A DNA stretch of 64,000 nucleotides from the NCBI GenBank assembly GCA_964437755.1, contig CAYTIA010000001.1, forward strand, positions 45,658 through 109,657. The letters run 5' to 3'. This document shows positions 57,844 to 63,790 of the stretch, one piece after another; position 1 is the stretch's first letter, and every line of letters starts with the position of its first letter. Source of the stretch: an uncultured Pseudomonadales bacterium. GTDB lineage: Bacteria > Patescibacteriota > Microgenomatia > UBA1400 > PJMF01. A program made the translations under genes and the position numbers. The notes below the pieces were generated by a model. That model worked only from the letters and a program-made list of their open reading frames with translations. It did not search any database and had not been told where the DNA came from.

Positions 57844-59547
57844 TTAGTGAATTTCAGATCTTCTATCTCTTAAAAAAGCACGCCAATCTTCAATTAATCC
57901 AACTAACAAAGAAAACGGAGAGTCGATAAGTGCGGAGAAAAAAACACTCACAATGTTATATTCCTTCCATTTTTGGGAGAGCCATTGGCCGAATTTAGCC
58001 AGCGGTAAATAAAAGAAATCAAGAACCATAGTTAAAAAACCTCCTCCTTCTTGAATTGTCAGTTCCTGCGCTTTATGCCTGACCACCATAGCTGCAAAAA
58101 CCACCATTGCCACGTTCATAGTGTCCACATAAATTGAAGTCCAGGGAACACCGGCTATCTTAAAGATCATATAGATAGAATAAGCCCCTACTAAGCCTCC
58201 AATAATACTAAAGATGCTAAAGACTGAGTTTATTAACCAATGTTTTTTTGTCTCAAGATTAATTTCATACACTTCATTTGAAGAAGATTTATGCAAAATC
58301 TTTTGGACCTCTTCTTTTACTCTCAAAAGATTTTTCTTTTCAGGAGGCTTAATTGTGATTACTAATAAAAACATCAGTGCAGAAGGAACCGCTAAATCAA
58401 TAAACAAAGCAAACCAACTAAAACCTTCTCCAATTAACTCCGCGACTGGACCCTCAAAAACAAAAAAGCTAACTATACCTGCCACAAAAATCGACAGAGT
58501 TGAATATATCGCCGAACGATAAAGTCTCTGTTTCAAAGTACTTAAACGACGACTGTAAACAGTTTCAATTAACTCATGTAGCTGAGATTTATCGGATAAT
58601 TTTTCCTTAATTGTGTCTGGATCATTCTCAACTTCCTTAAGTACATCTCCCAAAATTAAAAAGGCTGCATCGTAACGATCACATAGCTTGAAGAACTCTT
58701 TACCGTATGGATGTTCTAAATCCAACTCAAGTCTATCCTTAATTTGTTCGATATTATGAGCAAATTCATCAATAAACTGCGAATCATCTTCAAACCATCT
58801 TGGATAATAATACTTAATCAAGTTATAGATAATTAAGGGTGAATCTAAAGAATAAAGAGATCTATGAACAGCGATATAGGTTTGAACCAGGATTTCTTCT
58901 TCAGACATCTTGCCAGTTGGCAAAACCTTTAATCTCTGAAAAAGAGTGGTAGTCATAAAGTTCATCAAAGCATTTTCTTTGAAAGCTGGTTCCAGAATTT
59001 CCTCTATTTCACAAGCTGCAACTTCTAAAATCCAGTTAAAAAAGTTTACTCTCTCTTTAATTTTAAGACTATTATTTTTCTGAGAGATCGGGGAGTTATC
59101 TAAGATGTAAATGTACTTCGCCAAACTTTTTTTAGCCAAGGGAATTTTGTTTTTGGATACTTTTCCAGGCTCAAAATAACCACTTCTCATCATTTCAAGT
59201 ACAAGAGGTTCAGTTAATTTTTGAGCATCCAAAGAACTTTGACCAATTCCCGATAGTTCTGAAAGTAGGGTTCTTTTTAAAATTCTTTCTATAGCTGTTC
59301 GACGAATGATATTTTCTTCTTTCCAGTCAATAATTCTTCTTACTTTTTCATAAAGTTTGGCAATCTTTGAGGCTAACTCATCTACCTCAAGAGGAGACAC
59401 CGCTGGTGTTTGTTCATAATTAAACCCTTCAATATGTCCATCAACATACTTAATTGCATCTTCTGAAAGTTGATGAATTGTGGTTTTCTTATTAACTGAA
59501 TCCTCAACTTCAGTTTGAGCGATTAGTGCTGTATCATTTTGTGACAT
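57844..59547 (-). CDS. hypothetical protein: ~340-aa soluble N-terminal region + ~5 C-terminal TM helices
   Basis: No recognisable catalytic motifs; hydrophobic helices start at about residue 345 (AIYSTLSIFVAGIVSFFVF...). Confidence 0.35.
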   Translation of the reverse strand: MSQNDTALIAQTEVEDSVNKKTTIHQLSEDAIKYVDGHIEGFNYEQTPAVSPLEVDELASKIAKLYEKVRRIIDWKEENIIRRTAIERILKRTLLSELSGIGQSSLDAQKLTEPLVLEMMRSGYFEPGKVSKNKIPLAKKSLAKYIYILDNSPISQKNNSLKIKERVNFFNWILEVAACEIEEILEPAFKENALMNFMTTTLFQRLKVLPTGKMSEEEILVQTYIAVHRSLYSLDSPLIIYNLIKYYYPRWFEDDSQFIDEFAHNIEQIKDRLELDLEHPYGKEFFKLCDRYDAAFLILGDVLKEVENDPDTIKEKLSDKSQLHELIETVYSRRLSTLKQRLYRSAIYSTLSIFVAGIVSFFVFEGPVAELIGEGFSWFALFIDLAVPSALMFLLVITIKPPEKKNLLRVKEEVQKILHKSSSNEVYEINLETKKHWLINSVFSIFSIIGGLVGAYSIYMIFKIAGVPWTSIYVDTMNVAMVVFAAMVVRHKAQELTIQEGGGFLTMVLDFFYLPLAKFGQWLSQKWKEYNIVSVFFSALIDSPFSLLVGLIEDWRAFLRDRRSEIH

Positions 59548-59601
59548 AATATATAGATCATTGTAACATTAGAGTGCGGTGGTGTAGACAAGCAATTGAG
59601 T

Positions 59602-60669
59602 TTAATATTTTGGCAAAAAGATTTTTGAGTTTTCTTTGGTAATAATAACTTTTTCAAAACCTCTTCCAACGATAATTCTGGCTGCTTTTCTTACTGCTCC
59701 CTCCAGAGTTCTTTGTAAAGTACGAATACCTGCATCAAAACCTAGAGGTCTAACCATAGTTGGCCACACATCTTCATTAACTATCAGTTGTCCAGGTTTT
59801 AACCCAGCCTTTTTTAATAAACTTGGAAAAATATACTCTTTACCTATAACCATTTTTTCATGATCAGTATAAGAAGGCATTGTTATCTTTTCTAACCTAT
59901 CCATAACTGCTGTAAGAATCTTACCCGTATTATTGGCGGTTGCTAAAAAGATTGCTTTACTTAAATCAACTGGATAATCAATATAATTATCAACAAAAGA
60001 ATTGTTTTGAGCTGGATCTAATAACTCTACTAAAACACCCATAATCTCTTGATTGGCCTCATCAGAAGCACGATCAATCTCATCAAGTAATATTATTGGA
60101 TTTCTAACACCAGAGTCACACAAGCCCTTTACAACTTTCCCTGGTTCACTGCCCAACAACAATCTTGAGTTGCCCCTTAACTCTTTAGCTGAGCCCATGC
60201 CACCAAAAGGAATTCTTACTAATTTTCTTTCTAATGCCTCTGCTAAAGCATATGCAAAAGTTGTTTTACCGGTACCCACTAATCCCACTAATAACAAAAT
60301 TGGAGCTCTAAAACCTTCATCCTGAAAATTTCTTTCTCTTAAAGCAATCACAGAAATATACTCTAAAAAACGATCCTTTATTTGTTGCATTCCGTAATGA
60401 TGCTTGTTAAAAATCTCCTTGGCCACCTCTATATCTAAACGATCTTTGGTTTCATTTTCCCAAGGAATCTTTAAAACCCACTCAATATACTTACTCACCA
60501 TTTCATGTTTGGTATCATAGCTACCAAGCTCAATGCTTCTTTCAAGAGCCACGATATCACGCTGAGCTTTATAGCGAAGCTCCTCAGGCATTTTAGCTTG
60601 CTGAACTTTTTGCTTTAAATCAAAGATCTCCTTTTGGAGAATATTTTGAAAATCTGTTTTTTGAGTCAT
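59602..60669 (-). CDS. orphan Lon-protease core fragment: Lon linker helix + AAA+ ATPase module only (no N-terminal LAN domain, no S16 protease domain)
   Basis: IPWENETKDRLDIEVAKEIFNKHHYGMQQIKDRFLEYISV aligns with the E. coli Lon linker [40 protein letters not shown]. Downstream parallels: Walker A LVGLVGTGKTT, Walker B ILLDEIDR, VLVELLDPAQNNSFVDNYIDYPVDLSKAIFLATAN and sensor-2 GIRTLQRTLE. The protein ends after the AAA+ lid and no DGPSAG-type protease motif exists nearby. Confidence 0.6.
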   Translation of the reverse strand: MTQKTDFQNILQKEIFDLKQKVQQAKMPEELRYKAQRDIVALERSIELGSYDTKHEMVSKYIEWVLKIPWENETKDRLDIEVAKEIFNKHHYGMQQIKDRFLEYISVIALRERNFQDEGFRAPILLLVGLVGTGKTTFAYALAEALERKLVRIPFGGMGSAKELRGNSRLLLGSEPGKVVKGLCDSGVRNPIILLDEIDRASDEANQEIMGVLVELLDPAQNNSFVDNYIDYPVDLSKAIFLATANNTGKILTAVMDRLEKITMPSYTDHEKMVIGKEYIFPSLLKKAGLKPGQLIVNEDVWPTMVRPLGFDAGIRTLQRTLEGAVRKAARIIVGRGFEKVIITKENSKIFLPKY

Positions 60670-60687
60670 AAAATGAAATAAAAGCAG

Positions 60688-61662
60688 TTAAATCTTTTCT
60701 AGAATCTTTTCTTTTGATAATAAACCAGTTTTTGCACCATAATTTCCAACAACGCTGGCAGCATTTTTAGCACCCATGATTGTTGCTTCTTGAGGACTTT
60801 TGCCCCAGTGTAAACCAGCTACAAAACCTACGGCAAATGAATCACCCGCTCCGGTTGAATCAAGTACGCCAGAACTTAAAGCAGGAAAGTGCAATAAATA
60901 CTCACCATGATAATAAACATCACCGCCCCTTTTTCCAGCAGTAACCACCACGTAAGGAAACGTCCTTAAAATTTGATTCTGAACATCAATAACCATCTGC
61001 CATTCTTCGTCATTAACTATAAAAGTCTCGCAGGGGATATCGTTGATCATTAGTCTTTGATCAGCAAGCATTAGTAACTCAGCTTTGCCGGGATTCCATG
61101 ACAGTTTAGTTGATCGAGAACGCTTAATTGATAGAAAGATCTTTTCTATAGTTTGCTGATTTCCTCCAATACTGCTCAAGTGGACTAGTTGAGCTTGCGC
61201 CAGCCAATAGGCTGAAATATCGTAGGGATCAAGCATTGCAGAAGCTCCTCGATGAACTAAGACTGATCTTTCTCCATTCTCGCAGGTTAAAATCACCGAT
61301 CCTCCTGTTTTTTCTAACTTTTCACAAATAACTAAACTTGTGTCGACTCCATTATCTCGAAGATCTTTTAGTACTAAATACGAAAAGTTGTCACGACCGG
61401 TTTCGCAAATCACCGATGTTTTAAAACCCAATCTTGAAAAACCAACTGCTGTATTACCACCACCTCCGCCAGTATAAACGTTAAAATCCTCTACATCAGT
61501 TTTACTACCATGGAGTTGACAAAGGTGAACTCCCTTGGGTGTGTCCATTAACTCAAACTTATCTGTATGAACAAAAATATCAACCAAAGCAGAACCAATA
61601 GTAATTACTTGGTATGGCATGGTTATATTAAAGCATGAAACAGATTGTGACTGTACTATCAC
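60688..61662 (-). CDS. PfkB-family carbohydrate/nucleoside kinase (ribokinase-like)
   Basis: N-terminal GG motif VYTGGGGGNTAVGFSRLG and C-terminal anion-hole DSTGAGDSFAVGFVAGL. Confidence 0.75.
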   Translation of the reverse strand: MIVQSQSVSCFNITMPYQVITIGSALVDIFVHTDKFELMDTPKGVHLCQLHGSKTDVEDFNVYTGGGGGNTAVGFSRLGFKTSVICETGRDNFSYLVLKDLRDNGVDTSLVICEKLEKTGGSVILTCENGERSVLVHRGASAMLDPYDISAYWLAQAQLVHLSSIGGNQQTIEKIFLSIKRSRSTKLSWNPGKAELLMLADQRLMINDIPCETFIVNDEEWQMVIDVQNQILRTFPYVVVTAGKRGGDVYYHGEYLLHFPALSSGVLDSTGAGDSFAVGFVAGLHWGKSPQEATIMGAKNAASVVGNYGAKTGLLSKEKILEKI

Positions 61663-63535: not shown

Positions 63536-63568
63536 AAAAAGCCCGCGCATTTAGCGCGGGCTTGATTT
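63536..63568 (-). terminator. rho-independent terminator (gcccgcgc-attta-gcgcgggc + U-tract on minus strand)
   Basis: Perfect 8-bp GC stem followed on the minus strand by TTTTTGTAT; lies 20 nt past the stop of 63587..63790. Confidence 0.65.
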
Positions 63569-63586: not shown

Positions 63587-63790
63587 TTATTTTGACTTCT
63601 TAAGTACTGGCATACCTGTTCTCTTGGTTTCCATAACCTCATAACCAGCAGGTACAGCCTCAATAGCACCATCTCGAACATCACGTGCAAAAAAGTAAAT
63701 TGTTTGCACACGACCATTCTTTAGGGTAACATCTCTTTTGTGGAGATGGTAGGTCTGCCCTTTTGAGTTTGTGTAGCTAAAAGCACTCAT
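63587..63790 (-). CDS. small hypothetical protein (67 aa)
   Basis: Intact ORF with its own terminator; no family recognised. Confidence 0.3.
   Translation of the reverse strand: MSAFSYTNSKGQTYHLHKRDVTLKNGRVQTIYFFARDVRDGAIEAVPAGYEVMETKRTGMPVLKKSK

Follow-up and report, generated by a model that had tools for sequence, protein, structure and literature searches.

A conserved Lon-type AAA+ ATPase gene without peptidase and LAN domains in Patescibacteria

Introduction

Lon is the textbook case of a single polypeptide chain that unites an ATPase with a peptidase. The published subfamilies A, B, C and LonBA are described as always possessing both the ATPase and the protease domains (PMC9569914). 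The gene reported here, which lies in a 64,000-nucleotide stretch of contig CAYTIA010000001.1 (the window, at its full length, in what follows), encodes a protein of 355 amino acids that is a Lon-type AAA+ module with a three-helix bundle, and that possesses neither the peptidase nor the LAN domain (Table 1). The feasibility of such a protein has a precedent in the fragment 235-584 of E. coli Lon, a stable product of limited proteolysis which in the crystal packs as an open hexameric spiral with its helix bundles facing the pore (PMC6722904).

The literature searched contains no account of a protease-less Lon core from bacteria of the Candidate Phyla Radiation (CPR). The family to which the protein belongs is apparently undescribed, though its members are present in the databases under generic names.

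Results

Domain content of the protein

In the 355-residue protein, Pfam recognizes the AAA domain at residues 125-263 (4e-16) and Lon_lid at residues 286-335, and gives no match to LAN or to Lon_C. The NCBIfam equivalog model for lon, TIGR00763, is matched at its positions 256-568 of 795 only, and the score of 296.9 bits does not reach the cutoff of 608; the score of 227.7 obtained with PRK10787 likewise falls short of its cutoff of 891. The best match in the PDB is the B. subtilis Lon 3m6a (E=1e-70); the Lon of T. thermophilus and about 30 other LonA/LONP1 entries are also matched, and all these matches are confined to the interval between the N-domain and the protease domain. Relative to E. 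coli Lon, the protein covers residues ~250-582, the end at position 582 being the boundary between the AAA and protease domains, and its residues 14-17 onward align in HMMER to position ~250 of the B. subtilis, T. thermophilus and E. coli enzymes. It is 32-38% identical to LonA over all ~340 residues, with a common fold. The AlphaFold2 model of the monomer (pLDDT 80, pTM 0.71) is superposed by Foldseek on LonA/LONP1 chains over ~340-350 residues (TMq 0.80-0.84) and on 6n2i, the E. coli Lon 235-584 fragment (TMt 0.85). The columns of the Ser-Lys dyad (S679/K722 in E. coli numbering) are gaps in all 136 members of the clade.

A preliminary description, made from the letters of the DNA alone, had read the open reading frame (ORF) as the linker and complete AAA+ module of central LonA, stopping right after the AAA+ lid between two genes devoid of LAN and S16. 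The Pfam, TIGR00763, PDB and fold matches bear out the first of these statements and the end at position 582 the second, and the flanking genes are indeed free of both domains according to Pfam and to tblastn, run with the domains from either end of 10 LonA.

ATPase motifs, coupling residues and pore

The residues of the protein were compared, in E. coli numbering, with those of 117 close members of its family (Microgenomates-type), 19 distant members and 46 LonA. K135/T136 (K362/T363), D196/E197, N246, R258 and R316 are invariant in the 117 close and 19 distant members. The full set of residues for the binding and hydrolysis of ATP is present, which predicts an active ATPase of the HCLR clade. 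The residues Y61 (= Y294), W64 (= W297), Y229 (= Y456) and D231 (= E458, here an Asp) are also kept, and their equivalents couple the nucleotide state to pore loop 1 in Lon (Shin et al. 2020, PMC7239648).

The lining of the channel is another matter, and the loss of the LonA pore-loop-1 tyrosine is a feature absent from the preliminary description. In Lon, Y398 and I399 hold the substrate (PMC7239648), and T397-Y398 is present in 46/46 LonA, whose consensus opposite RGNSRLLLGSEPG is RGHRRTY[VI]GAMPG. In the Microgenomates-type subfamily, this loop reads L-[L/I/V]-L and not one of the 117 sequences has an aromatic residue at the Y398 position. Of the other LonA residues, R395 is replaced by Ser, the aromatic residue of pore loop 2 by Ala, M/L402 by Glu, and the Walker A GPPG by G-[L/V/I]-[Q/V/A]-G (G-L-V-G in the present protein). 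At the position of M284, which in Y. pestis Lon is a residue of the three-helix bundle (NTD3H) that winds round the substrate and lines the pore at its entry (PMC7239648), a Tyr is found in 117/117 close members and a Tyr or Phe in 14 of the 19 distant ones, the commonest residues in the 46 LonA being M/A/G/Q/T/S.

Family and distribution

In a search of 5.8 billion proteins, the best 120 matches are almost all of 352-355 amino acids and 70-98% identical to the query; those that bear a name are called 'AAA family ATPase' (Patescibacteria, Pacebacteria, Woesebacteria) or, at JGI, 'ATP-dependent Lon protease'. The proteins of 352-355 amino acids fall into more than 100 distinct clusters at 90%. 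Three groups emerged when 1.84 billion representatives were searched exhaustively with HMMER. The first consists of 83 single-module proteins with a C-terminal domain of ~220 amino acids, which are ordinary LonA; their pore loop 1 is aromatic in 82 of the 83 and typically reads RGHRRTY[VI]GA[ML]PG. The second comprises 19 proteins that end with the lid, 17 of which (38-57% identical to the query) have no T-Y-[V/I], the other two looking like truncated records of real Lons. Remodelling of the pore, as judged from this contrast between 82/83 representatives with a C-terminal domain and 0/17 true lid-terminated ones, correlates with the loss of the peptidase. The third group contains 34 proteins with tandem modules. 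Among these, P0121-P0129 and P0153 (990-3865 amino acids) carry 2-4 Lon-type AAA+ modules, some with degenerate pore loops, and the four that were scanned with Pfam (P0121, P0124, P0125 and P0128) end with a genuine Lon_C peptidase domain; the named examples come from Dependentiae, Elusimicrobia and one Brassica napus record.

A profile built on the distant lid-terminated members retrieved, as its best 120 matches, proteins of ~350-630 amino acids, many of them named Dojkabacteria/WS6, and Lon_C is on record in none of these 120. The longer N and C termini of some members were considered as possible degenerate S16 or LAN domains and rejected, these segments being of low complexity, rich in S/T/P/Q and without signal for the LAN or S16 profiles. 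In a rough neighbour-joining tree of the conserved core, computed with no bootstrap, the 25 members sampled form one clade and none of the 46 LonA falls inside it. The closest full-length Lons among the 1.84 billion representatives are only 36-40% identical, the named one being from Clostridiales, and for this reason a recent origin of the clade from a co-resident lon does not seem likely. It is spread through Patescibacteria, with members in Pacebacteria, Woesebacteria, Microgenomates and Dojkabacteria. Taken together, the sequences form a large and ancient-looking clade in Patescibacteria (CPR) whose members are devoid of LAN and S16. The preliminary description had called stand-alone Lon AAA+ cores uncommon, which holds for Lon homologues in general and fails within Patescibacteria, where the family is large.

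The titles 'uncultured Pseudomonadales bacterium' or 'Gammaproteobacteria' are borne by many third-party metagenome-assembled genome records of ENA (loci L001-L055) in which the gene and its synteny are clearly of the Patescibacteria type; this looks like a placeholder or erroneous taxonomy.

Integrity of the gene

The gaps on the two sides of the gene measure 18 bp and 54 bp and therefore leave no room for decayed LAN or S16 domains. The exact 355-residue protein is recorded on four contigs, three of which, from different samples (JGI, Logan, ENA), are 100% identical in nucleotides, ungapped, over the gene and both junctions. The position of the stop is kept in relatives. For the relatives that allowed an estimate of dS, the ratio of non-synonymous to synonymous substitution rates (dN/dS) is 0.018 at 96% identity and 0.06-0.10 at 71-75% identity, values that are rough since dS is close to saturation. 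Strong purifying selection on the protease-less gene is indicated by these comparisons.

The N- and C-terminal domains of 10 full-length LonA gave nothing at E<=1e-3 in tblastn against the window and 59 related loci (1.02 Mb). Among the 30 ORFs of the window scanned with Pfam, neither a part of a Lon nor another peptidase of the ATP-dependent or chambered kind is present; the ORFs scanned have housekeeping functions, examples being those of SecY, AlaRS, FTHFS, SHMT, PFOR, RNase J and FtsK. A recurrent downstream ORF of ~208 amino acids, present in 35 loci and of a size similar to S16, was considered as the missing half of a split Lon and rejected, Pfam identifying it as a uracil-DNA glycosylase.

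Two origins had been envisaged in the preliminary description. The decayed or split lon is refuted by the short gaps, by the three identical assemblies and by the absence of an S16 or LAN ORF near the gene in the 59 related loci. The stand-alone Lon-derived ATPase is supported by the family of 352-355 amino acids, the low dN/dS, the invariant ATPase residues and the separate neighbour-joining clade. A frameshift at the gene ends, which had been proposed as a check, is not seen, both junctions being identical in three assemblies, and the orthologous loci, with the same stop and neither LAN nor S16 nearby, contradict frameshifted versions joined to an S16 domain.

Neighbourhood and synteny

In 56 loci from GTDB species genomes, whose records refer in their titles to Pacebacteria, Woesebacteria, Microgenomates and Patescibacteria, the genes follow one another in the order RpiB, Rpe, SLOG/LOG-like, PfkB, Lon-AAA, a variable segment, RNase J and FtsK. 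The variable segment contains a uracil-DNA glycosylase gene (Pfam) in 35 loci and the gene of a ~268-residue membrane protein in 21, and it is empty in L012, L030 and L054, the last being a locus of 50% identity. The ~268-residue protein (e.g. L008 3370-4173), which is multi-pass and belongs to no Pfam family, is encoded between the glycosylase and RNase J; it is absent from the window. In the window, the downstream neighbour is the gene of the 567-residue membrane protein, for which no Pfam or NCBIfam family (sub-threshold MFS-like matches only) and no solved relative were found. The insertion of this gene into the space that separates RNase J from the Lon-AAA gene is confined to the five closest relatives. 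A partnership of the two proteins, suggested in the preliminary description, finds no support and was rejected, the membrane protein being absent from all other loci with an examinable downstream region.

The context in Dojkabacteria (WS6) is wholly different, since the Lon-AAA gene adjoins a cluster resembling a type IV secretion system (T4SS) in the three loci examined. This cluster (L057 11187-17317, L058 11568-16716, L059 11529-16465) encodes PrgI, a TraC-like protein and a VirB4-like DUF87/AAA_10 ATPase, with T4SS pilins further on. A Peptidase_M23 gene lies 5-47 bp downstream of the Lon-AAA gene, on the same strand, in L058 and L059, and is absent from L057. No neighbour is conserved across the CPR classes when the Microgenomates-type and Dojkabacteria loci are compared, and because of this the arrangement of the Microgenomates-type loci is best taken to be inherited and not that of a functional operon. 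RNase J and FtsK were rejected as functional partners on the same comparison: they are syntenic throughout the Microgenomates-type genomes, L054 included, and not in Dojkabacteria. Membership in a defence system was also rejected, PADLOC-DB giving weak generic AAA matches (<=31 bits) in a housekeeping gene context.

Promoter and terminator scans around the Lon-AAA gene gave nothing above chance. Farther away, a strong terminator-like hairpin with a 10-bp stem, 8 G-C pairs and a following T run is located at positions 63539-63563 (minus strand) of the window, just upstream of rpiB. It has a 67-residue ORF (63587-63790) on one side and the rpiB-rpe-SLOG-pfkB-lonAAA array on the other, and a long transcription unit of co-directional genes may begin there. 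Over the whole window (1-64000), 41 of the 47 ORFs of at least 150 amino acids are on the minus strand and the GC skew is negative throughout (cumulative -5.0), which is consistent with a single replichore of a small, strongly strand-biased genome.

Table 1. Position in the window of the Lon-type ATPase gene, of its parts and of its neighbours (residue equivalences in E. coli Lon numbering, Ec).
Feature	Positions	Strand	Remarks
Protease-less, LAN-less Lon-type AAA+ ATPase gene	59602-60669	minus	355 aa, ATG start, TAA stop (stop codon 59602-59604)
Residues 1-114, C-terminal part of the LonA HI(CC) helical domain including NTD3H, and linker to AAA+	60328-60669	minus	Five helices in the AlphaFold2 model
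Tyr51	60517-60519	minus	At the M284 position of Ec/Y. pestis Lon (NTD3H, substrate entry pore)
Residues 121-263, AAA+ large (alpha/beta, nucleotide-binding) subdomain	59881-60309	minus	Pfam AAA, LonA fold match
Walker A, GLVGTGKT, residues 129-136	60262-60285	minus	K135 = Ec K362; LonA GPPG prolines replaced by L-V
Pore loop 1, RGNSRLLLGSEPG, residues 165-177	60139-60177	minus	L170-L171-L172 replace T397-Y398-I399; S168 replaces R395
Walker B, IILLDEID, residues 193-199	60073-60093	minus	D196, E197 = Ec D423, E424
Sensor-1 Asn246	59932-59934	minus	= Ec N473; invariant in 117+19 sequences
Arginine finger Arg258	59896-59898	minus	= Ec R484; invariant
Residues 264-355, AAA+ small (lid) subdomain	59605-59880	minus	Ends at Ec 582; Pfam Lon_lid 286-335
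Sensor-2 Arg316	59722-59724	minus	= Ec R542; invariant
Spacer from the upstream PfkB-family kinase gene	60670-60687	minus	18 bp, no space for LAN
PfkB-family kinase gene, upstream neighbour	60688-61662		Without LAN/S16 match
Spacer to the 567-aa membrane protein gene	59548-59601	minus	54 bp, without S16 coding capacity
567-aa membrane protein gene, downstream neighbour	57844-59547	minus	Soluble N-terminal half, multi-pass membrane C-terminal half

Discussion

The reading that we favour, to which we give a probability of about 0.55, is that of a functional stand-alone AAA+ ATPase derived from Lon, which combines the NTD three-helix bundle and a complete AAA+ module without LAN or S16. The protein would assemble into a Lon-like hexameric ring and, at the expense of ATP, would unfold or remodel its clients through an axial channel, thereby acting as a chaperone or unfoldase and not as a protease. 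The lining of this putative channel would differ from that of Lon by an aliphatic pore loop 1, a pore loop 2 without aromatic residue and an entry ring of Tyr (Y51). Because the pore loops have lost their aromatic residues and the Tyr at the M284 position is invariant, the grip on the substrate may have moved towards the ring of three-helix bundles at the entry. The ATPase would have no dedicated operon partner, its gene being set here in the housekeeping array rpiB-rpe-SLOG-pfkB-lonAAA-...-rnj-ftsK.

Several points weigh against this reading. The oligomeric state, the ATPase activity and the clients are read here from the sequence and from a model of the monomer. The protease ring of LonA contributes to the stability of the hexamer, so that the formation of a ring by a protein devoid of it is an assumption. 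Pore loop 1 is variable in the wider clade and sometimes polar (GEH, SEP, ANP), which fits poorly with a universal threading of polypeptides and would also be compatible with a non-threading role. Finally, the search having covered the gene neighbourhoods, these genomes may also encode a canonical Lon or a peptidase that acts in trans.

The last of these points leads to the alternative that survives best, although we consider it unlikely: a two-component protease in which the ATPase ring would dock a separately encoded peptidase, either an orphan S16 or another chambered or secreted enzyme, in the manner of ClpX-ClpP and HslU-HslV. The end of the protein coincides with the point where the peptidase is attached in LonA, and the C-terminal N347-x-x-I-F-L-P-x-Y355 is invariant within the Microgenomates-type subfamily. 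The last five residues, however, are not conserved over the wider clade, and the conserved part corresponds to LonA's own linker between lid and protease; FLPxY, restricted to the subfamily, was for these reasons rejected as a docking motif. The M23 gene downstream of the ATPase gene in two Dojkabacteria loci could be taken for that of the partner, but it is missing from the third locus and is not among the recurrent downstream ORFs of the Microgenomates-type loci. M23 peptidases are, moreover, peptidoglycan hydrolases and not chambered proteases. No S16, LAN, ClpP-like or HslV-like gene was found among the examined ORFs of the window or near the gene in the 59 loci, and the loss of the gripping tyrosine speaks against processive threading into a chamber.

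A role in nucleic-acid metabolism or the cell cycle appears improbable. The protein would in that case remodel a protein-DNA or protein-RNA complex tied to RNase J, FtsK or uracil-DNA glycosylase, or would bind DNA itself, as reported for the ATPase region of LonA. The order LonAAA-(UDG)-RNaseJ-FtsK in most of the 56 loci is in its favour, as is the locus of 50% identity, L054, where the gene directly abuts rnj-ftsK; so are the pore loops, devoid of the aromatic residues typical of polypeptide translocases, and the molecule name given to 6n2i by its depositors, 'DNA-binding ATP-dependent protease La'. This neighbourhood, however, gives way to the T4SS-like cluster in Dojkabacteria, the Microgenomates synteny spans at least 8 unrelated housekeeping genes and looks like inherited order, and Pfam detects no nucleic-acid-binding domain in the protein.

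Still less credit can be given to a modulator, that is, a truncated subunit that would adjust the activity of a full-length Lon from another locus by entering its hexamers or capping them. The elements acting between subunits (arginine finger, sensor 2, PS1-beta-hairpin residues) are indeed LonA-like, but the best full-length relatives, at 36-40% identity, give no sign of a close CPR LonA as parent or partner, the clade is separate from all 46 sampled LonA, and the divergent surroundings of Walker A and the pore loops suggest a long independent evolution. As for a pseudogene fragment, a split gene or an assembly or frameshift artefact of an ordinary lon, which the domain architecture alone, that of the middle third of LonA, would evoke, it can practically be discarded because of the short gaps, the three independent assemblies identical through both junctions, the dN/dS of 0.02-0.10, the conserved stop, the hundreds of homologues sharing both ends and the absence of LAN or S16 remnants from the window, the 59 loci and the tails of the longer members.

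The protease-less Lon ATPase, real and conserved, adds an apparently undescribed form to a well-known machine. A large, conserved and catalytically equipped family reduced to the motor reveals that the Lon AAA+ ring is capable of an independent life. It offers a natural experiment on the motor function of Lon without proteolysis, with a bearing on the long-discussed chaperone activity of Lon, on the extent of change that the pore loops can tolerate, and on the organisation of protein quality control in the ultra-small cells of the CPR. The annotation is also corrected, several sources having attached the label 'ATP-dependent Lon protease' to proteins that are unable to be proteases. Could Lon have been replaced, in a major branch of Patescibacteria, by a protease-free motor whose gripping aromatic residue moved from pore loop 1 to the entry ring of three-helix bundles (the Tyr at the M284 position)? 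Such a motor would be the main cytosolic quality-control ATPase of these cells, either as a new single-ring AAA+ chaperone or unfoldase or by docking a non-cognate peptidase. We advance this replacement tentatively, as a possibility with the odds against it; if true, the interest of the family would be all the greater.

Comparison with known systems

The protein descends from the ATPase of LonA (endopeptidase La, MEROPS S16, TIGR00763), is predicted to work like it, and shares with LonA Walker A and B, sensor 1, the arginine finger, sensor 2, Lon_lid, the three-helix bundle and the residues that couple the PS1-beta-hairpin to NTD3H. It differs from LonA by the absence of LAN, of the long coiled coil and of the S16 peptidase with its Ser-Lys dyad, and by the replacement of T-Y-[V/I] by L-[L/I/V]-L in pore loop 1, of the pore-loop-2 aromatic residue by Ala, of GPPG by G-L-V-G and of the residue at the M284 position by Tyr. 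The name 'Lon protease' does not suit it, because it has neither LAN nor S16, scores below the equivalog cutoff and is without the tyrosine of the pore loop. Nor does it resemble a split, two-gene Lon, for the downstream ORFs of its relatives encode uracil-DNA glycosylase, the 268-residue membrane protein or RNase J, and no S16 or LAN.

ClpX and HslU are stand-alone unfoldases of the HCLR clade, which act with or without a separate peptidase. Like the protein described here in its predicted form, they are single AAA+ rings of the same clade made of a separate polypeptide, and a functional analogy is possible; the homology is nevertheless limited to the AAA+ core, and the protein possesses neither the IGF loop that docks ClpP nor the I-domain of HslU. 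LonC, e.g. that of Meiothermus taiwanensis, a Lon-like protease without ATP-powered unfolding, is another Lon derivative that has lost the coupling of ATPase and protease, and a role as a chaperone has been discussed for it (PMC3391209, PMC13069640). The solution is nevertheless the opposite one: LonC has kept the peptidase and lost the ATPase activity, whereas the protease-less family has intact ATPase motifs and no S16. The plant proteins iLON/LON-like1-4 also represent a single Lon domain that survives as an independent protein, and they are the complement of the present one, since only LAN is kept there and LAN is what is absent here (PMC8889267). Another likeness is that of the E. coli Lon 235-584 fragment (6N2I), whose boundaries are almost those of our protein (~250-582 in E. 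coli numbering) and on which its model superposes with a TMt of 0.85; the fragment, however, is a product of proteolysis in the laboratory, whereas the 355-residue protein is a natural gene product that evolves independently and whose pore residues have been remodelled.

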